Source: a virus
Length of the DNA stretch: 64,000 nucleotides
Virus record (IMG/VR): IMGVR_UViG_3300028558_000016
Span: 406,014 to 470,013 of that record
Reading direction: 5' to 3' (one strand)
Below, one piece after another: positions 9,901-33,759 of this stretch (position 1 is the stretch's first letter; each line of letters begins with the position of its first letter). A model generated the notes under the pieces. The model was not told the DNA's origin and searched no databases. It was given only the letters and a program-made list of their open reading frames with translations. Position numbers and translations under genes: made by a program.

Positions 9901-9922
9901 ATAAAACCGGTGCCGTCCAAAT

Positions 9923-10007: not shown

Positions 10008-10011
10008 AATT

Positions 10012-10576: not shown

Positions 10577-10577
10577 T

Positions 10578-10817: not shown

Positions 10818-11100
10818 AAAGTTCGGTGAGTTAAACGAGGGTGGATTAGGTTATGAAAACAACAAAACGCTTCCTCCATCTGGGACACACATAAAATATG
10901 TTGCTGACACAACAGATCCAAAGACCAAAAAAATTCTCAAGATTATTTGGAATTCATGGGACGAGGCAAAAAGGAAACAGATGCTTAACAAAATGGGACA
11001 CAGCGAAAAGTATTTTGATGCTTCTTTTGAAGACCTGACAGGAGAGATCCAAGGAAAGATCGTAATGCTTGATGCCTCATTGCCAGAAAACAAGCGATAA
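10804..11100 (+). CDS. MKHIKLFE-leader family member on the + strand (N-terminus MKNLKKFGELNE)
   Basis: N-terminus matches the MKNIKxFxELNE sub-variant found in the 62–64 kb array. Confidence 0.5.
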   Translation: MKNLKKFGELNEGGLGYENNKTLPPSGTHIKYVADTTDPKTKKILKIIWNSWDEAKRKQMLNKMGHSEKYFDASFEDLTGEIQGKIVMLDASLPENKR

Positions 11101-11140
11101 AATAAATTTTTTAGTTTCAAATATAATACCTATATTTGTA
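11101..11140 (+). promoter_or_regulatory. Bacteroidota-type promoter; copy 2 of the conserved module
   Basis: AATAAATTTTTTAGTTTCAAATATAATACCTATATTTG, with a −7-like TATATTTG at 11131–11138. Confidence 0.6.
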
Positions 11141-11338
11141 AAAGATTAAGAAACAAAGAAAACCGCAAGGTATATAAGATACAAATGATGAATACAGTAA
11201 ATATTACCCGAATTATTAGGATTAGACGCAGATCAGCGACTCGCCTGGGTAGTATTATTTTATCATGAAAGTTTTAAGGATTTAGAAAACTATGAATGGA
11301 ATAAGCCCAGGACGAAAGTTCTGGGCTTTTTTCATTTT
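11141..11338 (+). ncRNA. candidate about 190-nt small RNA with a 6-codon mini-ORF; paralogous to the 7.6-kb element
   Basis: Promoter followed by AAGGTATATAAG, then a mini-ORF ATGAAAGTTTTAAGGATTTAG at 11265–11285, then terminator AGCCCAG-GACGAAAGTT-CTGGGCT followed by TTTTTT. Confidence 0.4.
11306..11338 (+). terminator. rho-independent terminator
   Basis: AGCCCAG...CTGGGCT stem followed by TTTTTT. Confidence 0.7.
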
Positions 11339-11382
11339 AAAAATATCGAAAATGAAATGGTTTAAGAAATTACAGGAAATAA

Positions 11383-11466
11383 CGGCACGTACTCAGACCA
11401 TCCTGATAAGATGGATAACTTGTAGCGGTGTTGCAAACGTGGGTTCAAATCCCTCCGTGCCGACCA
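11383..11466 (+). tRNA. atypical tRNA-like gene (anticodon-like hairpin GAT; no recognisable D arm; long extra segment; encoded CCA)
   Basis: Acceptor CGGCACG/CGTGCCG perfect; hairpin CCATC-CTGATAA-GATGG (canonical Ile-GAU loop); only 6 nt between position 9 and the hairpin; 24-nt extra segment; T arm GTGGG-TTCAAAT-CCCTC; ACCA end. Confidence 0.4.
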
Positions 11467-11737
11467 TGAAAAATATGTTGTATAAAACCGCAAGAAGGTC
11501 GTTGTCAAAAAAGACAAACAGACATTTGAGACAAACCACGTTTCTCTACGAGATGTGTGGAAATGATTTTCAAAAGCTGTTAAAGGTGGAAGAGAGATTG
11601 AAAAATTATTTTCTCTTTTATTGTCCAGGCGATCCTGAAGAAGTGGAAAAAGTTTTGGCATTGCCTGAAAAATTTTTATTGAACGATAAGAAGTGGCAAG
11701 ATGGATCAAAATATTTTTGCTTAGAAGAATTTTACGA

Positions 11738-11811
11738 CGGAATGTAGCTCAGTTGGTTAGAGCACCCGCCTGATACGCGGTAGGTCGGCAGTTCGAATCT
11801 GCCCATTCCGA
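11738..11811 (+). tRNA. tRNA-Ile(GAT): tRNA-Ile (anticodon GAT), canonical cloverleaf
   Basis: Acceptor CGGAATG/CATTCCG; D arm GCTC-AGTTGGTTA-GAGC; anticodon loop CTGATAC; T arm GGCAG-TTCGAAT-CTGCC. Confidence 0.75.
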
Positions 11812-11814
11812 CAG

Positions 11815-11960
11815 ATGTCCTTAGCTCAGTGGTTAGAGTATTATGCTGATAAAAGGTTTTAGATCTTGTAATGGAAAAATATCACGGCTCATAACCGTGG
11901 TACCAAAACAAAAATTTAAAATGCACATAAGGGTCGGTGGTTCGAATCCATCAGGACATG
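11815..11960 (+). tRNA. tRNA (Ile-GAT-like) interrupted by an about 72-nt insertion in the anticodon loop
   Basis: Acceptor ATGTCCT/AGGACAT perfect; D arm GCTC-AGTGGTTA-GAGT; anticodon-stem halves TTATG ... CATAA separated by 72 nt that begin CTGATAA and contain the hairpin CACGG-CTCATAA-CCGTG; T arm GGTGG-TTCGAAT-CCATC. Confidence 0.5.
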
Positions 11961-11969
11961 CATAAAAAT

Positions 11970-12043
11970 GCCCGCGTAGCTCAACTGGATAGAGCACCTG
12001 ACTACGGATCAGGAGGTTTAGAGTTCGAATCTCTACGTGGGTA
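11970..12043 (+). tRNA. tRNA-Arg(ACG): tRNA-Arg (anticodon ACG)
   Basis: D arm GCTC-AACTGGATA-GAGC; anticodon arm CCTGA-CTACGGA-TCAGG; T arm TAGAG-TTCGAAT-CTCTA. Confidence 0.75.
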
Positions 12044-12047
12044 CATT

Positions 12048-12121
12048 GGTTTTGTAGCTCAATTGGATAGAGCAATTCCGTCCTAAGGAAAAGGTTATAG
12101 GTTCGAGTCCTATCAAGATCA
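12048..12121 (+). tRNA. tRNA-Arg(CCT): tRNA-Arg (anticodon CCT)
   Basis: D arm GCTC-AATTGGATA-GAGC; anticodon loop GTCCTAA; T arm ATAGG-TTCGAGT-CCTAT; acceptor GGTTTTG/CAAGATC with two G·U pairs. Confidence 0.65.
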
Positions 12122-12126
12122 CAAAT

Positions 12127-12199
12127 GCCTGCGTAGCTCAGTGGACAGAGCGCCGGTCTTCGGAACCGGGCGTCGGGAGTTCGAATCTCTCCGTGGGTA
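12127..12199 (+). tRNA. tRNA-Arg(TCG): tRNA-Arg (anticodon TCG)
   Basis: D arm GCTC-AGTGGACA-GAGC; anticodon arm CCGGT-CTTCGGA-ACCGG; T arm GGGAG-TTCGAAT-CTCTC. Confidence 0.75.
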
Positions 12200-12223
12200 C
12201 TGAAGTAAAATGGAATTAAATAT

Positions 12224-12313
12224 GCCCGTGTAGCCGAGGAAGTTTTCTAAACTTTTATCCGTAATTGGAGCTGCGTCTCACGACTAATGGGGGTTCGAAT
12301 CCCTCCACGGGTA
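12224..12313 (+). tRNA. atypical tRNA-like gene (anticodon-like hairpin TCT; no recognisable D arm; 33-nt extra segment; 90 nt)
   Basis: Acceptor GCCCGTG/CACGGGT; hairpin GAAGT-TTTCTAA-ACTTT; T arm GGGGG-TTCGAAT-CCCTC; same architecture as the elements at 9923 and 11383. Confidence 0.4.
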
Positions 12314-12328
12314 CTTAAAATTAAAGTT

Positions 12329-13492
12329 ATGAAAATTGATATTGATAAAATAAAACAGATCCCCAAAGAGATTTCGGAAGAATTTGGGATGTGCGTCTAT
12401 GGACCAATCTCAGATGAGATTAAGGCATGGATGGAATTCCATGGTATGCAATCGCAAAACATGGGAAATTATACAAACATCTATACAGATAAAAACATTA
12501 TTGATCTGTTCAATAAACCAGAACCATTTGAATACATCGATGGGTTCAGTCCAAACCTAAACAAGAATCTTCACATTGGACACTTCTCAAATTTAGTTCT
12601 TGCAAAGGCTTTCGTCTCTCTTGGAATAGCAAAGAAGACTGTGGCAATATTGGGAGACACGTTAGAAGGGGATGTTTCAAAGGAAGATGCGTTGAACAAC
12701 TACAATGAGATATGTGAGAAATTCTCATACCCCGTAGATAAGATGTTCATGGCTTCTGAAATGGAATCTGATTACAACCTCGTGGATGGTGTTCATGAAT
12801 ATGAAGGAACCAAAGTGTTCTATCTTGATACGCCATTAGTTGGAATCAAAAGCGATGGGTCAACAACATATTTCTATCAGGACGTTGCATTGGCACAAAA
12901 ATTAAATGCTCCAACATTATATCTTACAGGAAGCGAACAGAACGGACATTTCAACAGCTTAAAGGAAATGTTTCCTAAAATAAAGCACATTGGACTTGGA
13001 CTTGTAAAAGCAAAAGGAGGAAAGATGTCAAGCAGACTCGGAAATGTTATTTGGATGCAAGATGTCATCGATGAAATGATGAGCAACTTTCAAGACGAAA
13101 AAGTGTGCTATAATGTTTTTGCAGGATTTATTTTGAAATCAACTCCTAAGTCTGAAAAGAACATAGACATATATCAATTGGACAATCCATTGAATTCACC
13201 TGGATTGTACTTAAGCTATACGTTAGCAAAACTAAAAAGCGCTGGAGTGAAATGTGAAGGAAAAACATTCACCTCTCAAGATCTTCAATTCAAATACATG
13301 AAGGCCTTGAACTCTCTTTCTCCAAATATTTTGCTTGAAGGTTTAATTGATCATGCAAAGAAGATAAGCGGTTTATACATCACTCACAAGATAAAAGATA
13401 ATGCGGTGAACCAGTCCATGTTTGAAATATTGGGTTCAGATTTATTATTAGGAATGAGCCTCCTGGGTTTATTTGATGTTGACAAGGTTTAA
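12329..13492 (+). CDS. compact arginyl-tRNA synthetase-like protein (class I; 388 aa versus about 570 aa canonical)
   Basis: HIGH motif SPNLNKNLHIGHFSN; ArgRS-specific KMSSRLGN in place of KMSKS (compare ArgRS kkMSTRkG) followed by ...QDVIDE; starts 16 nt after the last tRNA-like gene. Confidence 0.7.
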   Translation: MKIDIDKIKQIPKEISEEFGMCVYGPISDEIKAWMEFHGMQSQNMGNYTNIYTDKNIIDLFNKPEPFEYIDGFSPNLNKNLHIGHFSNLVLAKAFVSLGIAKKTVAILGDTLEGDVSKEDALNNYNEICEKFSYPVDKMFMASEMESDYNLVDGVHEYEGTKVFYLDTPLVGIKSDGSTTYFYQDVALAQKLNAPTLYLTGSEQNGHFNSLKEMFPKIKHIGLGLVKAKGGKMSSRLGNVIWMQDVIDEMMSNFQDEKVCYNVFAGFILKSTPKSEKNIDIYQLDNPLNSPGLYLSYTLAKLKSAGVKCEGKTFTSQDLQFKYMKALNSLSPNILLEGLIDHAKKISGLYITHKIKDNAVNQSMFEILGSDLLLGMSLLGLFDVDKV

Positions 13493-13549
13493 TTAATTTT
13501 TCGTAAATTAGTCTTGCGCATCTATTTATAAACTGATAATCTAAATCAA

Positions 13550-14506
13550 ATGGCAACCAAAACATCTAAAGCCGCAACAGGAACCGTGAAAGCACGAACA
13601 GCAGGAAGAAAAGCAACGACATCAACAAAGACACCAATGAAAGCAGAAACTACATTGGAACCAAAAAAGGCCTCGAAGATTAAAATAAGTGGAAAAGAAG
13701 TTACATTGAACGGGTATTTTAAAATTGAATTGGGAACCTTTTCGATTTTAAAGCACAACATCCGAAACAACATAAGCACTCTTTTAATAGGTCCAACAGG
13801 ACTTGGAAAAACAGATGTCGCAGTTAACATTGCGTCTGTGCTCGATGTTCCTATAACCATATTTGATATGGGAACGATGACTGACCCCATCATGGGACTT
13901 GTTGGAACTCACGTCATAGAGGTTAAAGATGGAAAAACATATTCTGAATTCAAGAAAAGCAGATTCTCTGACGTCATCCAAAAACCAGGAATAGTTTTAT
14001 TGGATGAGGTCAATCGTGCTGCATCAGCCGCTAACAACTTATTATTTCCTTGTTTAGATTTCAGAAGAGAGCTTCCAATGGAATATTCGTTTGGAGATAC
14101 TAAGCCAATTCCAATTCATCCTAAATGTGTTTTCTTTGCAACGGCAAATATAGGATCTCAGTATACCGGAACTCACAAGCTTGACAGAGCATTAATCGAT
14201 AGGTTCATGATTATTGCAGTTGATAGTCTCAACACTCAACAAATTATGTCCACGTTAGAAGTGACTCATTCTAAATTAAGTGAGACTGACAGAAAAAAGA
14301 TTGTTGACATTTACAACAAGATAAACAAAGAGCATGACGATTTCAAAATAGGTTTCAATTTGTCAATACGACATTTGAAAACTGTTGCGACACTTGTGCA
14401 AAACAAGTTCACGATATATGATGCGTATTATGCAATATGCAAAGGACTTGGTGGACCAGAAGGATTAAAAGCTATTGAATCGATCTTAAGCACCTCTAAA
14501 AAATGA
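13550..14506 (+). CDS. MoxR/CobS-like AAA+ ATPase
   Basis: Walker A LLIGPTGLGKTDVA; Walker B VLLDEVNRA (the DExNRA form typical of MoxR/CobS); K/T-rich N-terminal tail. Confidence 0.7.
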   Translation: MATKTSKAATGTVKARTAGRKATTSTKTPMKAETTLEPKKASKIKISGKEVTLNGYFKIELGTFSILKHNIRNNISTLLIGPTGLGKTDVAVNIASVLDVPITIFDMGTMTDPIMGLVGTHVIEVKDGKTYSEFKKSRFSDVIQKPGIVLLDEVNRAASAANNLLFPCLDFRRELPMEYSFGDTKPIPIHPKCVFFATANIGSQYTGTHKLDRALIDRFMIIAVDSLNTQQIMSTLEVTHSKLSETDRKKIVDIYNKINKEHDDFKIGFNLSIRHLKTVATLVQNKFTIYDAYYAICKGLGGPEGLKAIESILSTSKK

Positions 14507-16242
14507 TAGGATTTGATATTACAGGAAAGAAATCAAAAAGCGTAACTAAATGGGAAGACTCATTGTTTGGAGGCTATTACAGAACTGTAATGGATTACCC
14601 GGACGTGAAAGTTCACAGCAACGTTGATTTTGATTTTGGAACCATAGCGTATGGAAGTTACTTTTTAAAAGAGAAGATCTTGAAGATTTTCTTATCTAAG
14701 GTTAAAACACACGGTTACACTACAAAGCTTTTGGATAACTGTACTGTCGAAAGAAAACGAGATGCATGGGGTGATGAAATCACTGAGGCCACCGTAGATA
14801 ATAACAGCAAGCTCAGTACAATAAGAGCTGTGATTGCAAGAGAACCAGAGTTTGCTCCTATGTTTTCCCATTATATGAAGTTTATAATGGACACCAGAAT
14901 TTACTTTTACAAAAGCAATTCTAAAGCTCCAAGCAATGGGACTGGTTCTTCAGACGACGATTTTGAAGAATTTAAGGATGAAAACGAAAATGACGAATCA
15001 TCCGGAAAATCAGAAGAAGAAAAATCTAAAAACGGAAACTCCGGTAAAGGCAAAGAGAAAGAGAAAGAAGAAGAGAAACCAGAAGAAACCAAGGATGAAA
15101 GCTCTGGTGATGGAGAAGGAGAAGAAAAAGAGGAGCCAGAAAATTCCGAATCTGATGGTTCAAATTCTGAAGAAGAAAAGGAAGAAGAAAAAGGAGATGG
15201 AGAAGGAGAAGGAGAAGAAAAATCTCCAGAGGATAAGGCGTTGGAAGATAAATTAGAAAAAGAACTTGAGAAAAGGAAACAGGAAATAGAAGAACGAGAA
15301 CAGAAGGCAAAACAAAAACCTGTCAAAAAATTAACTCAGGCTGAAATAAATCAAATCCAAGAATCTTTCAAAAAGGCCATTCAAAGTATAGTTGAAGAGT
15401 CCATTGTTCATAGCTACATTTCAGGATTTAAAAAACCTGTTAAAGTAATTTTTGAACGACCAAATGTTAGAGACACTGAGTTTAATTACGAAGACAAAAG
15501 AATAGCCGAGAATCTCGTTAAGATGCTCGACATTTCATTTGACCCAGCGAAAGAAATAGTAAAGAACTTGCGTCTTGGCAAATTGGACATATCAAAGATT
15601 GCAGAGGTTCCAGCCGGAAATATTGCCATATACAAGCAGGATGTGGAAAATCAAACGACTAAACCATTTAGCATTGTAATATTATGTGATGAGTCAGGAA
15701 GCATGGGTTCTGGACATGAATACAAAGGACGTGGCGATAAATTGTATTCGCAATATAGAATAGTCAAACAATTGTACTTGGCATTTTCTGACATCATTCC
15801 ACAGAATAAACTCTATGTGTATGGACATTCGGGATCAGAAGAACCTGAGCTTTATGTTTATCAAGATTCTTATCGTCCAAATTTTACCAAGACGATTGAT
15901 CACATGATCCACAACCATAATCACCATTCCAATTATGATGGACCTGCAATAGAAGAAGTTTACAATCAGGTAAGAAATTCCACCGATGATAGAATAATTT
16001 TTATTTGTCTTTCTGATGGTCAACCTGCTGGAAATAATTATGGAGGTCACGATGATCAATTGAAAATGAAACAAATAATTGAAAAATGTAAGAGGGATGA
16101 ATTCGTGACTGTTGGTGTTGGAATTCAATATTTCACCGTAAAGAATCTTTATCAATACAGCACGGTGGTAACTGATCTGGATGAAATGGCTAAGAAAGTG
16201 AGTCACATAGTCAATCACGTGGTCAAAAGTGAGTTTCAATAA
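14503..16242 (+). CDS. CobT-like protein: acidic low-complexity centre plus a C-terminal VWA domain
   Basis: E/K/G-rich region EEEKEEEKGDGEGEGEEK; MIDAS motif ILCDESGSM (DxSxS); the partnership with the upstream AAA+ gene mirrors CobS/CobT and other MoxR–VWA pairs. Confidence 0.6.
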   Translation: MIGFDITGKKSKSVTKWEDSLFGGYYRTVMDYPDVKVHSNVDFDFGTIAYGSYFLKEKILKIFLSKVKTHGYTTKLLDNCTVERKRDAWGDEITEATVDNNSKLSTIRAVIAREPEFAPMFSHYMKFIMDTRIYFYKSNSKAPSNGTGSSDDDFEEFKDENENDESSGKSEEEKSKNGNSGKGKEKEKEEEKPEETKDESSGDGEGEEKEEPENSESDGSNSEEEKEEEKGDGEGEGEEKSPEDKALEDKLEKELEKRKQEIEEREQKAKQKPVKKLTQAEINQIQESFKKAIQSIVEESIVHSYISGFKKPVKVIFERPNVRDTEFNYEDKRIAENLVKMLDISFDPAKEIVKNLRLGKLDISKIAEVPAGNIAIYKQDVENQTTKPFSIVILCDESGSMGSGHEYKGRGDKLYSQYRIVKQLYLAFSDIIPQNKLYVYGHSGSEEPELYVYQDSYRPNFTKTIDHMIHNHNHHSNYDGPAIEEVYNQVRNSTDDRIIFICLSDGQPAGNNYGGHDDQLKMKQIIEKCKRDEFVTVGVGIQYFTVKNLYQYSTVVTDLDEMAKKVSHIVNHVVKSEFQ

Positions 16243-16259
16243 TTTTTTGTATATTAGCT

Positions 16260-16532
16260 ATGTTCTTTGACACGATACAAAATATTCTTCTCGCAAAGAG
16301 AAAGAGAAAAGAGTATGGATATACAGCAGTAGGAGAATTGCTTAGAAATGTTCATGGAACTGAAGCAAAAATAATAGATGTTATTTTTAATCCGGCTGGA
16401 TCCATTATAAAATTTGCTTACGATGATGACATGTTCTATTATACAACAATAGAGAAGCTCCAGACAAAATATTTTAAGATGATTGAATATTCTTCTGGTA
16501 GAATGTCAAATGAAGAATATGGAAATGAATAG
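16260..16532 (+). CDS. hypothetical protein (90 aa)
   Basis: ORF ending at the tRNA-Arg(TCT). Confidence 0.4.
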   Translation: MFFDTIQNILLAKRKRKEYGYTAVGELLRNVHGTEAKIIDVIFNPAGSIIKFAYDDDMFYYTTIEKLQTKYFKMIEYSSGRMSNEEYGNE

Positions 16533-16605
16533 GTCCCGTAGCTCAGCTGGATAGAGCACAGGTTTTCTAAACCTGCGGTCCTTGGTTCGAATCCAAGCGG
16601 GATCA
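16532..16605 (+). tRNA. tRNA-Arg(TCT): tRNA-Arg (anticodon TCT)
   Basis: Acceptor GGTCCCG/CGGGATC; D arm GCTC-AGCTGGATA-GAGC; anticodon arm CAGGT-TTTCTAA-ACCTG; T arm CTTGG-TTCGAAT-CCAAG. Confidence 0.75.
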
Positions 16606-16609
16606 CAAA

Positions 16610-16849
16610 ATGGAGAAATTTTTTAGCGACATACAGAAACACATCCTAATCGTCAGAAAAGGAAAGATGATGGGAAAGGAACTCAGCGATAAAATAAAAG
16701 ATTTATCCTCAGTTACTGACAAAATGAGAAAAAATTTGTTGAACGATCTTGAAACAAAATTTGGAATAAGGATTGAAGCAATGACAACAGTGACATTCGA
16801 TAAAAATGGAAAAGTTAAAACGGAAAGAATAATAGATTTTAAGGAATAA
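16610..16849 (+). CDS. hypothetical protein (79 aa)
   Basis: ORF. Confidence 0.4.
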   Translation: MEKFFSDIQKHILIVRKGKMMGKELSDKIKDLSSVTDKMRKNLLNDLETKFGIRIEAMTTVTFDKNGKVKTERIIDFKE

Positions 16850-17190
16850 TGGAAATAATAATGTTTATACTTGGAGCAGCCACGGTGCTGTTCATTCAGT
16901 TTTTAATGAAGAACAATTCTACAAAGAAGGTGATGAAAACTATTTATAACCCAATAGTTGAAGCCACTTATGAGAAAGGAATTATGACTGTGAAATATCA
17001 CAATGGACAAGTTTCTCGATACCAGGGAAGTTCCACAGTGTGGCATTCATATCCATTGATGCACAGGATAGGAACTTTGGGAGAAGGAAGATTGTGTGAT
17101 ATTTACCAATACATTAAAACTCATGGAAATCCTTATCCAACAGCACACAAGAAATTAGAAGAAGAAAAGAAAAACGCGTTTTACGAATAA
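16849..17190 (+). CDS. membrane-anchored hypothetical protein (113 aa)
   Basis: N-terminal TM helix IIMFILGAATVLFIQFLM. Confidence 0.45.
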   Translation: MEIIMFILGAATVLFIQFLMKNNSTKKVMKTIYNPIVEATYEKGIMTVKYHNGQVSRYQGSSTVWHSYPLMHRIGTLGEGRLCDIYQYIKTHGNPYPTAHKKLEEEKKNAFYE

Positions 17191-17561
17191 TGTTCATGTA
17201 CGGATTATATGCAAATGATGAAACCATGCGACAGTATGTGGAATTCATCTGTGCTCAAATAAGCACACGCTGTGGAGCATCCGTTAATGCGACCAGCGGT
17301 TTTCCTATGAAAGGCTATTACGTTCCCGTTAAGTTGGAAATAAAAGAAAAGCTTTCAAGATCTGCTGAAATGAAAATGACCGTGTTTGGATATGAAAAAG
17401 AATTCATATTCTTCATGAGCAGACACAAGAGTCCTGATTCATTGTTGCATGAGCTCCAAAGAAAGATCGATGAATTGACTTTGGAAGTAATAAAAGAAAA
17501 TAACATGGACCAAGACAAAATATACAATGACCATCATCCTTTAAAAAATTTAAAATTATAA
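17190..17561 (+). CDS. hypothetical protein (123 aa)
   Basis: ORF. Confidence 0.45.
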   Translation: MFMYGLYANDETMRQYVEFICAQISTRCGASVNATSGFPMKGYYVPVKLEIKEKLSRSAEMKMTVFGYEKEFIFFMSRHKSPDSLLHELQRKIDELTLEVIKENNMDQDKIYNDHHPLKNLKL

Positions 17562-17562
17562 T

Positions 17563-18255
17563 ATGTCAGCATTTAATTTAGCAGTTCCACCACATCCACT
17601 ATCCTCGTTATTACTAAGAGCAATTAACTGGGCACAGCCTGATGATCCTGAAAAGAAATATCCTATTCTTGGAAGAATGAGATATGTTTGGATCGATGAA
17701 GAGAAAAATATTAAGATTCTGGTTAGAGATGCTCCTGACTCATGGTCAGAGGAAAAGGACGAAGTGATGAAACAAATCAAAGGTCATGAAACTTTTGTGA
17801 GTGTTGAAGTTTCTGAAAAAGATTCTACACATCTAATTGCCACATTCAAGCCTGTAATGGAAACTTCTTATGACAGAAGCATTCCAATGGATGAATTCCT
17901 CGATAACATCCACATATTTGATGAGGGTGCTCAATCTAAAGGTTGGCCGTCTCTTCTTGTTGGACCATGGGAATTATTTGATATTGCTATGGAGAAAATG
18001 AAAAATGGAGAGATGAGTCCCAAGATGGAGAGATTTGGTGAGCAATTAAAAGAAATGCTAAATGAGTCGGAAGCGGAAGACAAGCTTGAAGAGATGACAA
18101 AGGAAGCTGGTATTGATGGATTTGAAACTAAGAAAATAAAAGTGATGACAGTCGACAGAGTAGGAAATTTGAGTGATGAGACTGAAAGATTCATGAAAGA
18201 AAATGACAATGGAAAAACTCCTGGACAAGATACAAGCCAAGATACTCGTTCTTAA
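17563..18255 (+). CDS. hypothetical protein (230 aa)
   Basis: ORF. Confidence 0.45.
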   Translation: MSAFNLAVPPHPLSSLLLRAINWAQPDDPEKKYPILGRMRYVWIDEEKNIKILVRDAPDSWSEEKDEVMKQIKGHETFVSVEVSEKDSTHLIATFKPVMETSYDRSIPMDEFLDNIHIFDEGAQSKGWPSLLVGPWELFDIAMEKMKNGEMSPKMERFGEQLKEMLNESEAEDKLEEMTKEAGIDGFETKKIKVMTVDRVGNLSDETERFMKENDNGKTPGQDTSQDTRS

Positions 18256-18360
18256 GCGAAAGAAACTGGCTAACATTGCAGTTTATTCAAAAGCTGTAAA
18301 TGAAAGGTTTTATGGAAACATTACGGTGAAAACATTCACAATTGAATTAAAAATAAAGGA

Positions 18361-18690
18361 ATGAAAATAATTGAAAAGGAAAATAAAGAGGTAAACGTAT
18401 TAAAGGATGTCATCTGCGACTGCTGTGGGAAAAGCTGTAACATATTCTTGGAAAAAGATCACCTTGTATCAAATTTCGAGTGCATGACACTCAAAGCCAA
18501 TTGGGGATATGGCACTAAGAAGGATATGGAAAGATGGACTGCTCAAATATGCGAAAAATGCGTGGATGAAAAATTAGTTCCATTAATTAAGTTTAAAAAG
18601 GAAGATCTCGATTTCAATACCGTTATAGGAACTCAATCAGATTATGGAAATAGATTAGAAGAAGGTCCATATCCAGGAATAGAAGACTAA
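18361..18690 (+). CDS. Cys-rich (zinc-ribbon-like) protein
   Basis: CDCCGKSC ... CEKC cysteine pairs. Confidence 0.4.
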   Translation: MKIIEKENKEVNVLKDVICDCCGKSCNIFLEKDHLVSNFECMTLKANWGYGTKKDMERWTAQICEKCVDEKLVPLIKFKKEDLDFNTVIGTQSDYGNRLEEGPYPGIED

Positions 18691-18983
18691 TGGAAAAATT
18701 TGCAAATAAAATAACCGAATTGCTCGTTTTAAAGAGAAAAAATAACAAAATCTTTAAAAACGTTTCAGGAATGGAATTTATTTGGGAAATGGCAGCAAAT
18801 TTTGGAATCCATAATATACAAACTGTTTCTATAATAGCAGAAAAAGATTTTATGACGCCGATGGTAGTTATAAATGGATTGGTTGTCGGAAACATATCGC
18901 GTGAAATGCTTCAGGATATTAAATCTAAAGGTTCACCGCCGGCATGTTGGAATGAGGAAATAATGGAAATAATGGTCCCTTAG
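18690..18983 (+). CDS. hypothetical protein (97 aa)
   Basis: ORF; the stop abuts the tRNA-Met. Confidence 0.4.
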   Translation: MEKFANKITELLVLKRKNNKIFKNVSGMEFIWEMAANFGIHNIQTVSIIAEKDFMTPMVVINGLVVGNISREMLQDIKSKGSPPACWNEEIMEIMVP

Positions 18984-19047
18984 CTCAGTTGGTTAGAGCG
19001 CCTGACTCATAATCAGAGGGTCGCAGGTTCAAATCCTGCAGGGACCA
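18974..19047 (+). tRNA. tRNA-Met(CAT): tRNA-Met (anticodon CAT; could also be an Ile2/lysidine type)
   Basis: Acceptor GGTCCCT/AGGGACC perfect; D arm GCTC-AGTTGGTTA-GAGC; anticodon loop CTCATAA; T arm GCAGG-TTCAAAT-CCTGC. Confidence 0.75.
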
Positions 19048-19048
19048 C

Positions 19049-19636
19049 ATGATAACAATTGGTATAGCTGGTGGAATGGGTTCTGGTAAGAGCCACATAA
19101 GCAAAGCATTTGCAAAGAATGGAATTCCTGTTTATGACTGTGATAGCCAAACTAAGGATTTGTTAAACAGGAATGAAAGATTAAAATCCAACATGATTTC
19201 CGCGTTTGGAGAAGGATGTTATGTTAACGGAAAATACAGCAGAGATTACATAGTCGAATTGGCATCTAAAAATCCTAATGTGGTAGATGATACTGGAAAA
19301 ATAATAGGTCCGTATCTTATTGAAGACTTCAAAACATTTAAAGAAATTAATGAGTCTTTCCATACTCCATTCATTGCTATAGAATCTGCGATACTTACTA
19401 AATCAAAAAAGCTTATGAATGAAATCAATAAGCTTCTTGTGGTGACTGCCCCATTTGAAATAAGAATGGATAGAATTAAAAAGAGAGATCCATTTAGAAC
19501 TGACGATGAAATCAAATTGTTATTAAGCAAACAGCCTGAGATCAAATTGTGTGAAATAGATTTTCTTATAGATAATGATGGAACTAAAAATGTGGATGAT
19601 GCCGTTGTGACAATTATTAATGGACTTATTCCTTAA
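19049..19636 (+). CDS. dephospho-CoA kinase (CoaE)-like P-loop kinase
   Basis: N-terminal ITIGIAGGMGSGKSHISKAF...IPVYDCD matches the CoaE signature (IGLTGGIGSGKS...VIDAD); 195 aa. Confidence 0.6.
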   Translation: MITIGIAGGMGSGKSHISKAFAKNGIPVYDCDSQTKDLLNRNERLKSNMISAFGEGCYVNGKYSRDYIVELASKNPNVVDDTGKIIGPYLIEDFKTFKEINESFHTPFIAIESAILTKSKKLMNEINKLLVVTAPFEIRMDRIKKRDPFRTDDEIKLLLSKQPEIKLCEIDFLIDNDGTKNVDDAVVTIINGLIP

Positions 19637-23938: not shown

Positions 23939-25657
23939 ATGAGCACTACCAGAAGCGAACGCAATGAGAGTTTCAAGAAGGCTTTTGTAATAAAAGCCAT
24001 TCCATTTCTCAAATCAATTTTTGCAAAAACTCAACTCGGTTACAATAGCATTGACGTCAAAAGCACTTGTGACAAACATGAAATCCCGACAAATGCCGTT
24101 CCAACGATGGTTGACCTCGGCATTTTAAAGATGCAAGGAGAAAAACGATCCGCAATGTACCATTGGAAAGGTGGTCTTATTAGTGATGATATGGCGGCAA
24201 GAATTTACGAAAGAATTCAGATGAACAAGCAACACGCCAAGATTAAAAAGAAAATGGAAGAACAACACGATAATAAGCTATCGAGCAAAAAGCTTGTTAA
24301 AGTGATTGGTTCTAAAAGACCGGTTGAATTTAAAAACGATCACGAAGCTGCCGCCATATTAAGATCAATGGTTGAAGTGTATGCTGGAACCAAGAACAAA
24401 GGAATGAAAACGGCAGGAATGATCCTCGAGATTATTAGAAAGGAAGTTAATAATGATACGTTGGCCGATAGAATTTTGAAAGGGCTTGTTGATGGAAATT
24501 ACATTACGGTCAATAAGAATTTAAACACGATCGACTTATACACCTGGAACGAAGATGAACCAAACGAGGAACATGCTCTATTTATGAAGGACATGATCAA
24601 GGAAACAGTAGGAGACGACAGACCAAACAGAATATTTAATTTCCTGATGTACCTCTATAAGTTTAAGACCTTCACACACGCTAAATTACGTTCAGAGGTT
24701 GTCAAGTTTAATTTGACTTATAATGACCAATCAGTCATCACGGCAGATGTTCTTGAATTCAGAGGTTCAAAAATCGATAGAGAGTATAAATGGAAATTGA
24801 GCGAAGCTCCATCAATACAGCTCGCAGAAGTGCTTGACCGAAAAGTAAAAGCATACGGAGCCAAATACAAAAAGGATTACACTCCTAAAAAGGAATCTCC
24901 TAAAATGGATAAACACGTCAAGGAAGAAAAGCCTAAAACAGTTGGTACAACCAACTATGGAGCTTCAACATTAACCGTGTTAGAATATCTTAAAACACAC
25001 GATCAGATGACAACTGATGAAGCGTGTGAGCTTCTTAAGCAAGACAAGCATACAATTTCCAATATATTCTGGAGATTGTGTAAGGATAAATTGACATACC
25101 GAGTTAAAATGAAAACCTATGCAATGGTTGGAAATTCAGCTCCTGTTAAAAAAGAAGAACCGGTTGTTGTAGTTCAACACGTAAACAAAGAAGTAATGAC
25201 ACATGATAATGATTTCTTAAGCAGTTTAAAATCTGCTTTGGACACCATGAGAGAGAAAGAGATTAAGCTTACAAGAGAATTGAATGATGTTAAGGAAAAG
25301 ATTAAAGAAGGTGAGGATCTTCTCGCCCTTAAGGAAAGAGAACATTCTTACATGGCTTCAATAGGAAAGTTTATAGGAAAGAAGAAAAATCCTGTCATTG
25401 ACCAAATATCGACAGCTCTTATAAAGAGCCAAGATAATGGAAGAAAGAGACACGCGCATGACAAACAAACGATACTTGATACTCTTAACAGAAAAGAACA
25501 AGTAACGCTTGATGAATTCATTGAAATATTTTATCCTGGAAAAGGTTTAAACTGGAACAGCGATGAAGTTAAATCACTATCTGCAATGATATATTCTTTG
25601 AAAAAGGATGGAAAAATTGAATCTCCGGAAAAAGCAATATACAAGTTGAAAAAGTAA
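23939..25657 (+). CDS. hypothetical protein (572 aa)
   Basis: Long ORF with no clear motif. Confidence 0.5.
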   Translation: MSTTRSERNESFKKAFVIKAIPFLKSIFAKTQLGYNSIDVKSTCDKHEIPTNAVPTMVDLGILKMQGEKRSAMYHWKGGLISDDMAARIYERIQMNKQHAKIKKKMEEQHDNKLSSKKLVKVIGSKRPVEFKNDHEAAAILRSMVEVYAGTKNKGMKTAGMILEIIRKEVNNDTLADRILKGLVDGNYITVNKNLNTIDLYTWNEDEPNEEHALFMKDMIKETVGDDRPNRIFNFLMYLYKFKTFTHAKLRSEVVKFNLTYNDQSVITADVLEFRGSKIDREYKWKLSEAPSIQLAEVLDRKVKAYGAKYKKDYTPKKESPKMDKHVKEEKPKTVGTTNYGASTLTVLEYLKTHDQMTTDEACELLKQDKHTISNIFWRLCKDKLTYRVKMKTYAMVGNSAPVKKEEPVVVVQHVNKEVMTHDNDFLSSLKSALDTMREKEIKLTRELNDVKEKIKEGEDLLALKEREHSYMASIGKFIGKKKNPVIDQISTALIKSQDNGRKRHAHDKQTILDTLNRKEQVTLDEFIEIFYPGKGLNWNSDEVKSLSAMIYSLKKDGKIESPEKAIYKLKK

Positions 25658-26154
25658 TGTCCTATGACGTCATATTAAAGGAAGTAGGTCGTGCTAAATT
25701 AGGAGTGGTTAAGACGATCATGGATCTAACTGGTCTTGGATTAAAAGACTCAAAGGACTTGGCAGATGATGTGGACCCTCGTGTTGGAAAAGGAAGAGTG
25801 ATAAGAAGAACAGATTCGCTCGAAGAAGCAGAGTCAGTAAAAATACCGCTTGAAAATGCTGGAGCAACAGTTGAAATCATGAATAATACTACATTGGAAA
25901 CAATACAATCAACATTAACGAGTTTCAAAGTTGTCACCAGCGGTTCAATATTGCAATACACATCTTCCACGCCAAGTTTAACTGGAATATTTGAACCTAT
26001 CGCTGGTACTGGGATTGGCGGGAAATCATTTCGCATTAATTACAGATCTAAAGATGGCGAAGATAAAACAGAAACAATAGAAGCTCCTACTTTAGAAATT
26101 GCTAAAACAAAGATACTTGATTTAGATTATGTTAACTACCACATGGGAGGTTGA
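25657..26154 (+). CDS. protein with an N-terminal ribosomal bL12 (L7/L12) C-terminal-domain homologue plus an about 90-aa extension
   Basis: YDVILKEVGRAKLGVVKTIMDLTGLGLKDSKDLADDV...LEEAESVKIPLENAGATVEIMN aligns closely with the E. coli L7/L12 CTD ([38 protein letters not shown]...LEEAGAEVEVK); the L10-binding N-terminal domain is absent. Confidence 0.7.
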   Translation: MSYDVILKEVGRAKLGVVKTIMDLTGLGLKDSKDLADDVDPRVGKGRVIRRTDSLEEAESVKIPLENAGATVEIMNNTTLETIQSTLTSFKVVTSGSILQYTSSTPSLTGIFEPIAGTGIGGKSFRINYRSKDGEDKTETIEAPTLEIAKTKILDLDYVNYHMGG

Positions 26155-29022: not shown

Positions 29023-29079
29023 TTCTCTTTGAGTAACATGGTTGGTTAACCTTGATTTACATACTCAAAGTTGAAGAGG

Positions 29080-29107
29080 AAGCCCCGAAAGGGGCTTTTT
29101 CTTTTTT
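29080..29107 (+). terminator. rho-independent terminator
   Basis: AAGCCCC-GAAA-GGGGCTT followed by TTTTCTTTTTT. Confidence 0.75.
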
Positions 29108-29153
29108 AGAAACTTTTTGTTCTGACGGTGATATTATTTATGATATTATTTAT

Positions 29154-29573
29154 ATGATCACTGCTTGCGGCATAATTGTTTTATACGAAAACAAAGTTCT
29201 TCTTTGTCACCCAACTAATTCTCGTTGGGAAGGAACTTATGGTGTTCCTAAAGGCAGAATAGAAGAAGGCGAAGAAACAATAGATTGTGCTGTAAGAGAA
29301 TTTTTCGAAGAAACAGGCATCATAATAGATAAAGATAAATTGAATGCCAAGACCATTATTGGTTATAAGAATTATCAGTCGGGCGAAGTCTACAAAGAAC
29401 TTTGCTTATTCATACACAAAATCAATCACCTATCAGAGATAGGACTCGATAATGAGGTTATCCCACAATCTCAATTACAGATAACAGAAATAGATTGGTG
29501 CGGATTCTTAACAAAAGATGAAGCAACACCAAAAATGTTTATCAAACAAATCCCAGTATTAAATTTTCTATAA
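29154..29573 (+). CDS. NUDIX hydrolase
   Basis: Nudix box GRIEEGEETIDCAVREFFEETG; start trimmed to the ATG downstream of the terminator. Confidence 0.7.
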   Translation: MITACGIIVLYENKVLLCHPTNSRWEGTYGVPKGRIEEGEETIDCAVREFFEETGIIIDKDKLNAKTIIGYKNYQSGEVYKELCLFIHKINHLSEIGLDNEVIPQSQLQITEIDWCGFLTKDEATPKMFIKQIPVLNFL

Positions 29574-30743: not shown

Positions 30744-33260
30744 ATGATGACTCCAACTGAAAGAATCGGCGACCTCGTGTTGCCACAGGGAACTTACGTT
30801 CTCATTCAGGATGGATCAAACGGTCAGGTCGATGTCATTGTTGGTCCAAACAAGACTGCAATGCAGGAAACAGACAAACCTGTGATCTATAAACCTGAAA
30901 CTGGTCGGTTTGAAAAAATCTCGAATGCGCTTGATGCGGTTCAGAGTTTTTCCACCGCAAACGAAGGACAGTACATCGTCCTTCATAATCCTTCCAAAGG
31001 AAACAAAGAACACCCTAACAAGGGAAGAAACACCGAGTCCACAGAATTAAGCATTGGAAATAAGATCAACATCACCGGTCCACAATCTTTCGCTTTATTT
31101 CCTGGACAACACGCGCAAATAATCGACGGACACCAACTCAAATCAAACGAATACTTGGTTGTGAGAGTGTACAACGAGGAATCTGCAAAAGAAAACATCG
31201 CAAAAGCGATAGTTAAAGCGGCAGAAGGCGCTGAGAAAAAGAAAAGCGAAATCAAAAAGGAAGATCTTGTTAATGGAAAATTGTTCATTATCAAAGGTAC
31301 TGAGATTTCGTTCTACATTCCTCCAACCGGTATTGAAGTAGTGAAAGAGCCAACAAGCAATTCTTACGTAAGGAAAGCTGTTACTCTTGAAAGACTTGAG
31401 TATTGCATTCTTCTTGAGCAAAATGGAAACAAACGTTACGTAAAAGGTCCTGATGTTGTGTTTCCTGAACCAACAGAAGAATTCATAGGACAAAACGGAA
31501 ACAACAAGTTCAGAGCTCTTGAATTAAACGATAACATGGGTATTTATATCAAGGTTATTGCGGACTACAAAGATGGAGACAATGAACACAAAGCAGGTGA
31601 TGAAATGTTCATCACCGGAAAAGAACAAAAAATTTATTACCCACAGCCTGAACATGCCATCATTAAATATGGCGATCAAATAATCCATTATGCAATTGCA
31701 ATTCCTTCCGGAGAAGGTCGTTACATTCTTAACAAGAATAACGGAGCAGTTGAAATGGTTAAAGGTCCAAAAATGTTCTTGCCAGATCCACGTAAGGAAG
31801 TTGTTGTTAAGAGAATTCTTGATGACAAGACTGTGGAATTGTTCTATCCTGGAAATTCCGAAGCGGTGGAATACAACCGCGAACTTCAAGGAGTAATGGA
31901 CACTCTTGAAGAAGATGAAAACTCACGCTCATTCTCAAATTCCGGAAGATACTTCTCTGCTGGAAATATGGGAGGAAGCAACAGAAGCCACGCACAATTA
32001 AATGAGTTCCTCGATCTTTCTGCACAAGGAAGCTTAGGATTAGAAGGTCCTTTAGGAAACTCAACACTTTCGAGATCTAAATCTGCTTCTTCGTCCACTA
32101 TGAAGCGTTCAACCAAACACACCAAACCAAGAACCATCACCCTTGATACTAAATATGAGGGAGTTGTTTCCATGAACGTTTGGCCTGGTTACGCTATACA
32201 AGTGATTAAGAAGAATGGAGAACGCGAAGTAGTGTATGGCCCTAAGGTCGTATTGCTTGAATACGATGAGACGTTAGAAGTTCTTGAGCTTTCTACTGGA
32301 AAACCTAAGAGTGATGGAAACCTCATCAAAACAGTTTACCTGCAAACAAACAACAACATTGTTTCAGACATCATCGAGGTTGAGACCAAGGATTCTGTCA
32401 CAGTGTCTATAAGATTGTCTTACAGAGTTAACTTCAAAGAAGACGATGCGAAAAAATGGTTTACCGTATCCAACTACGTGAAGCTTCTAACACAACACCT
32501 GCGTTCAGTTGTAAGAAACAGCGTGAAGAAGAACACCATCGAAGAATTCAACAACGCGGCAACAGACATCATACGTAACATAATTCTCGGAGAACCAAAA
32601 GATGGTAAGCGCGAAGGAAAATACTTCGAGGAAAATGGAATGAATGTGTATGACGTTGAAGTATTAAACATCAAAATCGGTGACGATAGAATCGCATCGA
32701 TGTTAAAAGATGCTCAGTACAACACCGTTGAAAAGAATCTTCTCATCGCAAAAGAAAAGAAGAACCTGGAGTACGTTAAGGAAACAGAGGGATTCAAAAG
32801 AGAGAGGATCAAAGAGGAAGCAAGTACGGAAGAACAACGTATGGTAAGCTTACTCGAAAAAATACAGTCCGATGCAAAAGCTGAACTTGAGAAATTAAAG
32901 AACGAAGAAGCTGCACAAGCTTCTAAGAGCAAAATCGCCGATGATGTTCTCGAAAGAGAAAGAAAATCGAAAGAAATGATCTTGAATTTCTTAAGCAAAG
33001 AAGCTGACATCGAGATTAAGAAAGTGAAAGAGAAGATGGAAGCAGTAACTCCAGGACTTATTGAAGCGATCACATCGCTTGGTACAGTTTCGTTATCAGA
33101 AATTCTTGCTAAGAACCTCAGAGCTCAAACGAGCGGATTGCATGGAATATTCCCTGAAGGCGGAATGGATGGATTAATGCACACCATCAAAGGAACAGCT
33201 CTTGAAAAACAATTTACTGACTTGCTTAACAAGCATGCAAAAACTCCAATAACCAACTAA
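30744..33260 (+). CDS. major vault protein (MVP) homologue, 838 aa
   Basis: N-terminus PQGTYVLIQDGSNGQVDVIVGPNKTAMQETDKPV matches MVP [33 protein letters not shown]; MVP-repeat-like GDEMFITGKEQKIYYP (compare GDEWLFEGPGTYIP); shoulder-domain block DIIEVETKDSVTVSIRLSYRVNF...FTVSNYVKLLTQHLRSVVRNSV matches MVP [23 protein letters not shown]...; Glu/Lys-rich coiled coil near the C-terminus. Confidence 0.75.
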   Translation: MMTPTERIGDLVLPQGTYVLIQDGSNGQVDVIVGPNKTAMQETDKPVIYKPETGRFEKISNALDAVQSFSTANEGQYIVLHNPSKGNKEHPNKGRNTESTELSIGNKINITGPQSFALFPGQHAQIIDGHQLKSNEYLVVRVYNEESAKENIAKAIVKAAEGAEKKKSEIKKEDLVNGKLFIIKGTEISFYIPPTGIEVVKEPTSNSYVRKAVTLERLEYCILLEQNGNKRYVKGPDVVFPEPTEEFIGQNGNNKFRALELNDNMGIYIKVIADYKDGDNEHKAGDEMFITGKEQKIYYPQPEHAIIKYGDQIIHYAIAIPSGEGRYILNKNNGAVEMVKGPKMFLPDPRKEVVVKRILDDKTVELFYPGNSEAVEYNRELQGVMDTLEEDENSRSFSNSGRYFSAGNMGGSNRSHAQLNEFLDLSAQGSLGLEGPLGNSTLSRSKSASSSTMKRSTKHTKPRTITLDTKYEGVVSMNVWPGYAIQVIKKNGEREVVYGPKVVLLEYDETLEVLELSTGKPKSDGNLIKTVYLQTNNNIVSDIIEVETKDSVTVSIRLSYRVNFKEDDAKKWFTVSNYVKLLTQHLRSVVRNSVKKNTIEEFNNAATDIIRNIILGEPKDGKREGKYFEENGMNVYDVEVLNIKIGDDRIASMLKDAQYNTVEKNLLIAKEKKNLEYVKETEGFKRERIKEEASTEEQRMVSLLEKIQSDAKAELEKLKNEEAAQASKSKIADDVLERERKSKEMILNFLSKEADIEIKKVKEKMEAVTPGLIEAITSLGTVSLSEILAKNLRAQTSGLHGIFPEGGMDGLMHTIKGTALEKQFTDLLNKHAKTPITN

Positions 33261-33390
33261 ATTGGAAAGATAGTAGAGTAGTGTAGTAGTTCATGTGTTA
33301 ATGTTTATTTGGTTAGCTTGAAGGCCATTCGCGAGAATGGCTTTCTCGTTTAACAACCCTGAGTCTTGAGGGGTAAATGCACCAGCAGAG

Positions 33391-33447
33391 AGATTACGGA
33401 GTCCAACCTCTGAGTGATACTGCTGGTTTTTTTGTGATATATACTTC
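33391..33447 (+). terminator. terminator within a structured intergenic region
   Basis: ACCAGCAG ... CTGCTGGT (8-bp stem) followed by TTTTTTT; two further hairpins lie upstream (GCCATTC-GCGAGA-GAATGGC and CCCT...AGGG). Confidence 0.55.
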
Positions 33448-33462
33448 ATAATAACAAACACC

Positions 33463-33759
33463 ATGAAAGTATACCTCCTAATAAACGAAGAAGGAAAATA
33501 TAAGATCGGTTTCACAGAACGAGAAACAAAGAAGCGAATAAAAGAATTACAGACAGGATCACCATCAGAAATGAGAGTCGTCCAAGAATATGAAAGCGAC
33601 AATGCAAGGAAGATAGAAACAATCCTACACAGGTTCCTAAGGTCTAAACGAATAAGTGGAGAGTGGTTTGAATTGACGAATGAAGAGGTTGCAGACTTTA
33701 AGAACAGATGCGCCAAGATCGATTACAATATAAAATTTCTCGAAGAAAATAAAATATAA
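33463..33759 (+). CDS. T5orf172 / GIY-YIG-like domain protein
   Basis: YKIGFTER...RIKELQTGSP...HRFL...GEWFELT matches the T5orf172 (GIY-YIG-related) pattern. Confidence 0.55.
   Translation: MKVYLLINEEGKYKIGFTERETKKRIKELQTGSPSEMRVVQEYESDNARKIETILHRFLRSKRISGEWFELTNEEVADFKNRCAKIDYNIKFLEENKI

Follow-up and report, generated by a model that had tools for sequence, protein, structure and literature searches.

Major vault protein (MVP) makes up the hollow particles, called vaults, in animal cells. The rat vault is a closed cage with 39-fold half vaults, and vault function has been unresolved since 1986. MVP homologues have been reported from bacteria (PMC3762200, Daly et al. 2013; bioRxiv 10.1101/872010, Sokolskyi 2019, for Cytophagales and Myxococcales), and the 'first viral MVPs' from two gut Caudoviricetes (Santos et al. 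2023, bioRxiv 10.1101/2023.11.10.566534). AlphaFold models of the latter two, ctOa11 and ct2Ri15, have the repeats, shoulder and cap helix, and their nearest relatives are bacterial MVPs (bioRxiv 10.1101/2023.11.10.566534). Here we analyse a 64-kb stretch of the IMG/VR virus record IMGVR_UViG_3300028558_000016 (positions 406,014 to 470,013 of that record; hereafter, the window), in which one open reading frame (ORF) encodes an 838-residue protein that is a genuine full-length MVP homologue, and more than an SPFH domain.

A sequence-only reading of the same DNA had called this ORF an MVP homologue, with coordinates, strand and length that are exact, and the identification is right and robust, Pfam, PDB and Foldseek being in agreement. 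The shoulder block on which that reading relied corresponds to a match of MVP_shoulder (PF11978) to residues 537–647 at 96.8 bits (cut-off 25; E 1.1e-27), covering profile positions 2–118 of 118, and the MVP repeat family Vault_3 (PF17795) matches residues 482–534 at 42.8 bits (cut-off 28.8; E 5.9e-11). Generic Band_7 is matched as well, far more weakly than MVP_shoulder (E 1.2e-6); Band_7 is likewise detectable in the shoulder of a 'chemotrophic' clade of bacterial MVPs (bioRxiv 10.1101/872010). All six distinct sequences recovered from the PDB with phmmer at E ≤ 1 were MVP, the best alignment (E 2e-20) pairing residues 470–798 with rat MVP 453–801 and a second, weak HMMER alignment pairing residues 225–367 with rat MVP 294–427. 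When a profile from 52 relatives was used instead, MVP was again matched exclusively and the best E improved to 2.6e-32. The motif GDEMFITGKEQKIYYP, which had been likened to GDEWL...YIP, does align with rat AGDEWLFEGP--GTYIP and AGDCWLIRGPLE--YVP, but the statistics of this alignment are weak (i-Evalue 0.74 with the single sequence and 0.061 with the profile). PHROGs held no family matching the 838-residue protein.

Structure prediction extended the likeness to the whole chain. An AlphaFold model built from a shallow alignment was poor (predicted local distance difference test, pLDDT, 62.5), yet the top 12 Foldseek matches were already all MVP. A second AlphaFold (AF2) model, from a deeper alignment of 96 sequences reaching down to 36% identity, had a pLDDT of 82.6 and a predicted template modelling score (pTM) of 0.61. 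Rabbit, human and rat MVP occupied ranks 1–12 of the Foldseek search against the PDB (E 1e-32 to 7e-26; 826–948 aligned columns; TM up to 0.54), with 16–19% whole-chain identity and a root-mean-square deviation whose high value reflects the length and flexibility of the chain. Crystal structures of murine MVP R1–R7, which lack the SPFH domain, followed at ranks 13–16 (E 4e-14 to 1e-12; TM 0.50–0.55), and from rank 17 onward came generic SPFH proteins (E 1e-6 to 1e-4), the next-best structural neighbours after MVP being HflK/C, flotillin, stomatin, prohibitin and QmcA. Since the R1–R7 structures match separately, the MVP likeness is not confined to the SPFH domain. The comparison with vault structures that the sequence-only reading had proposed thus puts MVP at the top, with a match extending beyond the SPFH domain; for the N-terminal repeat-1 motif singled out in that reading, sequence-level statistics gave no support, and what stands is the fold match of this part of the chain to R1–R7.

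Domain boundaries (Table 1) are our own reading of the model and the alignments. The N-terminal beta-rich region would hold about seven repeats, counted by us from strand groups in the model and from recurring xGP and Y-x-P motifs. Internal repeat similarity is weak (best hhalign E 2e-4), so that the exact repeat number remains an estimate. HMMER pairs residues 226–371 with rat R6–R8 and residues 471–536 with R9, and the model has about four strand groups in the first 225 residues, from which we estimate about eight repeats in all, compared with nine in rat. The linker that precedes the last repeat ranges from 39 to 99 residues across the family and varies in net charge in the 96-sequence alignment. 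It falls between two HMMER-aligned stretches (query 367 corresponding to rat 427, and query 470 to rat 453) and, by our assignment from these alignments, would lie within the span given to rat R8. We had considered an RNA-binding charge conserved on this disordered linker and rejected it, as the charge is not conserved across the family. The Glu/Lys-rich helical tail noticed earlier in the sequence is borne out by the predicted unbroken helix, which contains 27 K+R and 28 D+E. Beyond it, model helices at residues 771–794, 808–815 and 819–832 have low to moderate pLDDT, and the C-terminal 72 residues are a possible candidate for the equivalent of the cap ring. No N-terminal hydrophobic (membrane) anchor is present in the sequence: the N-terminus is a soluble beta repeat in the model, and some 530 residues come before the SPFH domain.

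The most conserved short motif of the C-terminal half is the loop S517-x-G519-x-P521-K522, with S517, G519, P521 and K522 conserved in 96, 94, 95 and 96, respectively, of the 96 family sequences. It aligns to human MVP S501/G503/P505/K506, identical at all four positions, and further pocket pairs are K520 with human R504 and N538 with human D521. The human S501–K506 region is part of the 'keyhole loop' of a pocket for nicotinamide adenine dinucleotide (NAD+) and adenosine diphosphate (ADP), in which R504, K506 and R511 hold the diphosphate (PMC12280208). Human MVP binds NAD+, ADP and ADP-ribose at the shoulder (PMC12280208; bioRxiv 10.64898/2026.05.01.722283), with a nucleotide affinity of only tens of micromolar (PMC12280208); this is a property of human MVP described only recently, and it does not define the family. 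Judging by the aligned residues, ligand binding may be conserved in the phage protein, and specificity cannot be inferred from the residues kept.

Relatives of the protein are numerous. A word-indexed search returned more than 6,105 of them at E ≤ 1e-5, several on contigs of 286–531 kb and many already carrying the Joint Genome Institute (JGI) name 'major vault protein'; an exhaustive search gave 1,171 clusters (50% identity), of which 578 reached E ≤ 1e-30; and with no more than two short peptide patterns, 191 viral contigs of up to 501 kb were picked up in IMG/VR. The earlier impression that no virus was known to encode an MVP is overturned both by these counts and by the two phage MVPs of Santos et al. 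(2023): that phage MVPs exist is already known, and large phages commonly have a copy. Among deposited phage genomes, the only protein matches were three unannotated huge-phage records; relatives at 50–52% identity occur in huge phages LR756500 and LR756501, the second being the LacPavin phage of 735,411 bp. No nucleotide-level relatives were found among deposited phages. Vaults are not mentioned in the main text of the paper describing LacPavin phage (PMC7162821), nor is MVP in a jumbo-phage comparative review, and BFVD contained no phage MVP, its best viral structural neighbour being a Harvfovirus protein. The breadth of MVP in huge phages and the RNA-repair link in a sister clade (see below) appear unreported in the literature searched.

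In GTDB we found 31 loci, all in metagenome-assembled genomes (MAGs), with best matches of 57% identity labelled Cytophagales. Many of the labels are Candidate Phyla Radiation (CPR) or Nanoarchaeota, on contigs of 330–390 kb, and because such labels are implausible as hosts and the contigs are of this size, those with a phage-type MVP are probably mis-binned huge phage; some other GTDB copies are likely to be genuine Myxococcota MVPs. The contigs of L092, L097, L117 and L119 (329–394 kb), each with a phage-type MVP gene, had been binned as Magasanikiibacteriota, Gammaproteobacteria, Nanoarchaeota or 'delta proteobacterium'; they have the look of huge-phage genomes placed in the wrong bin, above all where the label is a lineage with small genomes. 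Two further observations concern individual phage groups among the relatives. In L024, L025, L027 and L028, which represent one group of phages of about 170–220 kb, MVP is followed at a distance of two to four genes by the start of tandem arrays of 7–14 small paralogous genes (cluster c53). In L053 and L054, ARAGORN reports at 165–239 of both loci a tRNA with anticodon CTA (given as tRNA-Pyl), of the amber-suppressor type, which may indicate stop-codon recoding in this phage.

Gene neighbourhoods point towards RNA in one part of the family. In the subclade less than 48% identical to the window protein, 34 of 56 loci have RNA-repair-type genes within 6 kb; among IMG/VR MVP loci made non-redundant at 90% identity, the same holds for 23 of 58, with at least two families in 18. 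These islands (L048–L088) contain RlaP, Thg1, a PNK-like AAA_33 kinase, three metallophosphatase families, RNase T and NADAR, together with a DUF2828-DUF7788 (vWA-like) protein and a flotillin-like Band_7 protein, in a gene order that varies on both sides of MVP. A putative RNA ligase with a K-x-H-G-T-like motif was recognised in them by eye only, outside the proteins scanned against Pfam. About 27 of 57 sister-subclade loci have tRNA genes within 6 kb of MVP. Burroughs and Aravind in 2016 reportedly described an RNA-repair 'syntax' with SPFH/Band-7 and TROVE scaffolds, which these islands resemble. The idea that the DUF2828-DUF7788 protein is a TROVE homologue could not be confirmed: neither a single sequence nor a profile found Ro60 or TEP1 in the PDB, and Pfam gave weak vWA similarity only. 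We regard the RNA-repair linkage as a lead about the family and as no evidence about the window gene.

Two further observations concern neighbouring genes. In four loci (L056:2397-2467, L057:2458-2528, L061:2455-2525 and L084:136-206) the DUF2828-vWA gene has a 71-nt tRNA-Cys(GCA) gene directly upstream of it, with MVP following three to four genes after the latter; this could be either a normal tRNA or a tRNA-like RNA that partners the vWA protein. In the wider subclade of the window protein, a tail-tube-like gene (phrog_45, E 6e-9) is found two genes upstream of MVP in L009, L014, L017 and L018, the sole hint of a structural-gene context.

In the window itself, the MVP gene has no Shine-Dalgarno sequence ahead of it and follows a histone H1-like Hc1 gene (Table 1). 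There is no hairpin in the 31-nt gap, and from this arrangement the two genes are probably co-transcribed. The order Hc1, MVP, T5orf172 is conserved in five independent contigs at 80–100% MVP identity. As a family-wide rule, Hc1-MVP adjacency was rejected, Hc1 being found only in the subclade of at least 80% identity in an iterative search of all ORFs of 88 loci. On the other side, the T5orf172/GIY-YIG gene reported earlier is confirmed by its MUG113 and T5orf172 matches, and about 20 nt upstream of its start is an element, GATATATAC, that is invariant in four relatives and shows no significant repetition elsewhere in the window. Genes like GIY-YIG homing endonucleases flank MVP in about eight loci (L013, L015, L019, L023, L029, L038, L042 and L122:7522-7992). 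Homing elements typically settle beside conserved genes, and the recurrence of GIY-YIG-type genes beside MVP in several phages, like the presence of T5orf172 in the window, hints that mobile endonuclease genes use MVP as a conserved place to land.

What had been described as a structured RNA region between MVP and the T5orf172 gene does not hold up as an RNA gene and resolves into terminator hairpins. The 202-nt spacer (33261..33462) has no Rfam match even at E ≤ 1 and folds only modestly better than shuffled sequences (z −2.26). Its first hairpin keeps its position in L122, L003 and L005, with stem sequences that covary (compensating variants GGCCATTC/GAATGGC, AGCCACTC/GAGTGGCT, GGCTCTTC/GAAGAGCC and GGGTCTCA/TGAGACCC), and a hairpin with a T-run directly after the stop codon and a compensating stem is what characterises an intrinsic terminator. 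The second hairpin is inside an insertion of ~85 nt that is specific to the window and absent from relatives at 86%, 82% and 80% MVP identity. A vault-RNA-like gene downstream of MVP was rejected on these grounds: no Rfam match, modest stability, and conservation of the terminator only.

The wider setting is that of a phage. The window has nine tRNA genes according to ARAGORN and 12 according to Rfam, and an array of them on the plus strand (7900..19050) is interleaved with truncated synthetase-like genes beside cognate tRNAs, with a 146-nt tRNA-like Rfam match at 11815..11960. It also encodes a dCMP deaminase, a phage-type sigma factor and members of families that are known from PHROGs alone, and a baseplate-hub-like gene and an SLT gene lie 7–17 kb downstream of the MVP gene. 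Most window ORFs are without a Pfam family and bacterial housekeeping content is lacking. An identical MVP protein is encoded on a 482-kb contig. That the source is a huge phage (about 482 kb) is well supported. Its host is probably a member of Bacteroidota, which fits the absence of a Shine-Dalgarno sequence, the Hc1 gene and the Cytophagales labels of the closest MAG matches; Bacteroidota hosts were predicted for the largest phages by Al-Shayeb et al. (PMC7162821).

Between the tRNA genes, the gene for a MoxR-type AAA_5 ATPase (318 aa) comes before that for a vWA-domain protein of 579 aa (13550..16242, plus strand); the two resemble a MoxR-vWA chaperone pair and do not match the DUF2828-vWA profile. 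The NUDIX and ADP-ribosylglycohydrolase genes of the window possibly share an ADP-ribose/NAD theme, whose link to MVP is conjectural.

Table 1. Features of the window discussed in the text (positions are those of the 64-kb window)
Feature	Position	Strand	Basis and remarks
MVP-homologue coding sequence	30744..33260	+	ATG start; 838 aa plus stop; Pfam, PDB sequence matches, Foldseek
N-terminal beta-rich MVP-type repeats, residues 1–391	30744..31916	+	pLDDT >90 throughout; Foldseek to R1–R7; weak HMMER alignment of 225–367
Ser/Gly/Asn-rich linker, largely disordered, residues 392–470	31917..32153	+	pLDDT <50 for 395–456; between penultimate and last repeat
Last MVP repeat (R9 equivalent), residues 471–536, ending in the S517-x-G519-x-P521-K522 loop	32154..32351	+	Vault_3, E 5.9e-11
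Shoulder (SPFH-type) domain, residues 537–647	32352..32684	+	MVP_shoulder, Band_7; pLDDT about 95
Cap-helix equivalent, one predicted unbroken helix, residues 648–766, 46% charged	32685..33041	+	DSSP; HMMER alignment to MVP cap helix
C-terminal region, residues 767–838, with GGFxGLLETIKGTPL-like conserved motif	33042..33257	+	Model helices; family consensus
Histone H1-like Hc1 gene, 63 aa	30521..30712	+	Pfam Hc1, E 1.3e-14; ends 31 nt before MVP start
Intrinsic terminator of MVP gene, hairpin GAAGGCCATTC-GCGA-GAATGGCTTTC followed by T-rich tail	33320..33351	+	In minimum-free-energy fold
Second hairpin and T7 run	33381..33433	+	In fold; inside the ~85-nt window-specific insertion
T5orf172/MUG113 gene, 98 aa, GIY-YIG-related	33463..33759	+	MUG113 80.6 bits (cut-off 22.3), E 1.3e-22; T5orf172 52.5 bits (cut-off 20), E 7.3e-14
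ADP-ribosylglycohydrolase gene	2197..3180	+	
HisRS fragment	within ORF 8396..9172		5′ end of the ORF overlaps two tRNA-His genes
TrpRS/TyrRS fragment	9169..9900		Near tRNA-Trp and tRNA-His genes
ArgRS-like gene	12287..13492		
Ribosomal protein L7/L12 homologue	25657..26154	+	Ribosomal_L12 C-terminal domain, E 5.4e-15
NUDIX hydrolase gene	29052..29573	+	Four genes upstream of MVP; also in L005 (80% MVP identity)

The explanation we favour, and hold to be somewhat more probable than its negation, is that the window, as part of a huge phage, encodes a full-length member of the MVP family whose product would form a soluble vault-like cage, with a role in RNA or nucleotide handling as the most likely one, at low confidence. 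The protein belongs to a large clade of prokaryotic and phage MVPs that has spread through large phages. By analogy with MVP and the solved SPFH relatives, its subunits would line up next to one another, with the shoulder and the long helix as contacts, and this packing would yield a dome or vault-like cage that is closed and of high symmetry, in soluble form within the infected cell's cytoplasm. We infer closure because MVP and every solved SPFH-plus-helix relative among the matches form closed domes, and the cage would be somewhat shorter than the rat vault because the protein lacks about one repeat and has a cap helix shorter by about 37 residues. Its role would most likely, although our confidence here is low, be that of a phage-made compartment or scaffold handling RNA or nucleotides, as suggested by the match of the S-x-G-x-P-K loop to the human diphosphate-binding loop and by the location of sister-clade MVP genes in RNA-repair and tRNA islands. 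For the roles put forward in the sequence-only reading, a shell protecting phage DNA or sequestering host factors, the analysis yielded no specific support. A wider claim, that large and huge phages commonly build vault-like cages that act on RNA or nucleotides, for example by sheltering or repairing tRNAs or by buffering NAD+ or ADP-ribose during host defence, is conceivable and in our judgement on the unlikely side. If it were true, phage cages would echo the eukaryotic vault, where MVP is joined by a TROVE protein, a small RNA and enzymes that consume NAD+, and phage MVPs would be a simple, genetically tractable system for vault function with a bearing on vault origin.

Several results weigh against this explanation. 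At the sequence level, residues 1–230 alone (phmmer) and a 14-sequence profile of residues 1–225 gave no MVP match in the PDB, and the AlphaFold model is of a monomer only. Most of the residues of the human NAD+ pocket are replaced (R507, P508, H509, P565, K573 and W545). MVP has no universal neighbour, the commonest neighbour family in an all-against-all clustering being present in 18 of 88 loci, and the RNA-repair linkage occurs in none of the 23 loci of the window's own subclade. Profile HMMs of the sister-clade DUF2828-vWA, RlaP, Thg1 and related clusters found no match in the window, and RNA-repair genes are rare in GTDB-labelled loci (NADAR in L091 and one phosphatase in L116). Neither TROVE nor PARP is among the 25 of 30 Pfam families listed for 85 window ORFs, and Rfam, run over this 64-kb part of a 482-kb genome, found tRNA only and no vault-RNA-like element.

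Other explanations differ in what they ask of these data. One would take the protein for a common SPFH/Band-7 membrane scaffold, similar to HflK, flotillin or stomatin and MVP-like through its SPFH domain only. The Band_7 match and the SPFH proteins among the Foldseek matches speak for it, but the MVP-specific Pfam models score far higher, the repeats match R1–R7 independently of SPFH, about 20 orders of magnitude separate the MVP matches from the generic SPFH ones, and the chain starts with a beta repeat and has no hydrophobic anchor; we consider this idea effectively refuted by the Pfam and Foldseek results and leave it next to no probability. Hardly better placed, and very improbable, is a bacterial gene on a chromosomal fragment of a Cytophagales-like bacterium. 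The best GTDB matches (57%) are indeed in Cytophagales MAGs, and Cytophagales and Myxococcales are among the bacteria known to have MVPs (bioRxiv 10.1101/872010), but housekeeping content is missing from the window, which contains truncated synthetases within its tRNA array, PHROG-specific families and a sigma factor of phage type. Relatives occur, moreover, in curated huge-phage genomes and on the 191 IMG/VR contigs, and many of the MAG labels are the CPR and Nanoarchaeota ones that are probably due to mis-binning.

If the gene is a phage MVP, its product could act other than as an intracellular cage with a role in RNA or nucleotide handling. It could be a virion component, that is, an internal, ejected or decoration protein of a very large capsid, as the tail-tube gene two genes upstream in L009, L014, L017 and L018 and the baseplate-hub-like and SLT genes of the window might suggest. 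That adjacency is seen in only 4 of about 120 loci, however, no PHROGs structural family matches, and none of the neighbours in the window (Hc1, NUDIX, cupin and T5orf172) is structural, so that we give a virion protein a small chance. A similarly slim one goes to a sponge or reservoir that binds NAD+ or ADP-ribose to counter NAD+-depleting host defences, with the cage as a secondary matter. Binding of NAD+, ADP and ADP-ribose by human MVP and the invariant S-x-G-x-P-K loop of the phage family fit such a role, as do the NUDIX and ADP-ribosylglycohydrolase genes of the window and the presence of NADAR beside MVP in unrelated contexts (L036, L063-type loci, L053-type loci and L091); yet six of roughly eleven aligned human pocket residues are replaced by dissimilar ones, the human affinity is only in the tens of micromolar, and large phages often have NUDIX and ADP-ribose genes, whose linkage may therefore be coincidental. 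An open scaffold for RNA repair or tRNA handling, with no closed container, along the lines of the SPFH/Band-7 scaffolds reportedly proposed by Burroughs and Aravind in 2016, is also unlikely, if a little less so. It would account for the sister-clade loci that join MVP with RNA-repair families and a flotillin-like Band_7 protein, and for the tRNA-Cys upstream of DUF2828 in four loci, but this linkage is seen neither in the window nor in its subclade and may reflect an accessory-gene region shared by one phage lineage, and a TROVE-like nature of DUF2828 was not detected by HMMER.

The phage cage with a role in RNA or nucleotide handling, our preferred explanation, would be a candidate for a further self-assembling protein compartment of huge phages, in addition to the phage nucleus. 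MVPs that are abundant and diverse in bacterial viruses, including those with the largest known genomes, provide many natural variants for the question of vault function, and the genes around them offer clues (RNA-repair islands, NADAR, tRNA genes and the gene of a histone-like protein), while a short invariant loop offers a target for mutation. An old question becomes more approachable through the breadth of MVP in huge phages and through its association with RNA repair in the sister clade.

Compared with eukaryotic MVP (rat 4V60/4HL8, human 9BW5/9MXV), the phage protein has the same order of beta repeats, SPFH-type shoulder, long cap helix and short C-terminal region, in 838 rather than 861–893 residues. 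Its cap helix has about 119 residues as against about 156, its repeats number about eight rather than nine by our estimate, and it contains a 79-residue, largely disordered linker that eukaryotic MVP does not have; of the partners of the eukaryotic vault, TEP1, vPARP and vault RNA, none was found in the window. The phage MVPs ctOa11 and ct2Ri15 (Santos et al. 2023), which we compare by description, have about 811 residues and about 23% identity to human MVP, and come from gut phages with likely Firmicutes hosts, one of them possibly temperate, whereas the window belongs to a huge phage with a probable Bacteroidota host. Bacterial MVPs of Cytophagales and Myxococcales are of the same family and length; the window copy is on a phage genome, and many 'bacterial' MAG copies may be phage contigs. 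HflK/C, flotillin, stomatin, prohibitin and QmcA share the SPFH domain and a long helix that builds a closed dome, but these cage formers are membrane-anchored and have no repeat barrel, whereas in the phage protein an anchor is missing and MVP repeats account for about 450 residues. In Borgs, which are giant extrachromosomal elements, a predicted vault protein 'sometimes co-occurs' with histone genes (PMC12660748), to which the Hc1 gene upstream of MVP in the window can be likened by description, Hc1 being of a bacterial type and the Borg histones of the archaeal histone fold. Finally, the Harvfovirus sp. protein A0A3G5A4K1 in BFVD, an 802-aa 'prohibitin domain-containing protein' (E 7.9e-13, 899 columns, 10% identity), is similar in length to the phage MVP but comes from a virus of eukaryotes and, on the strength of this structural match, may be an unrecognised giant-virus MVP-like protein.

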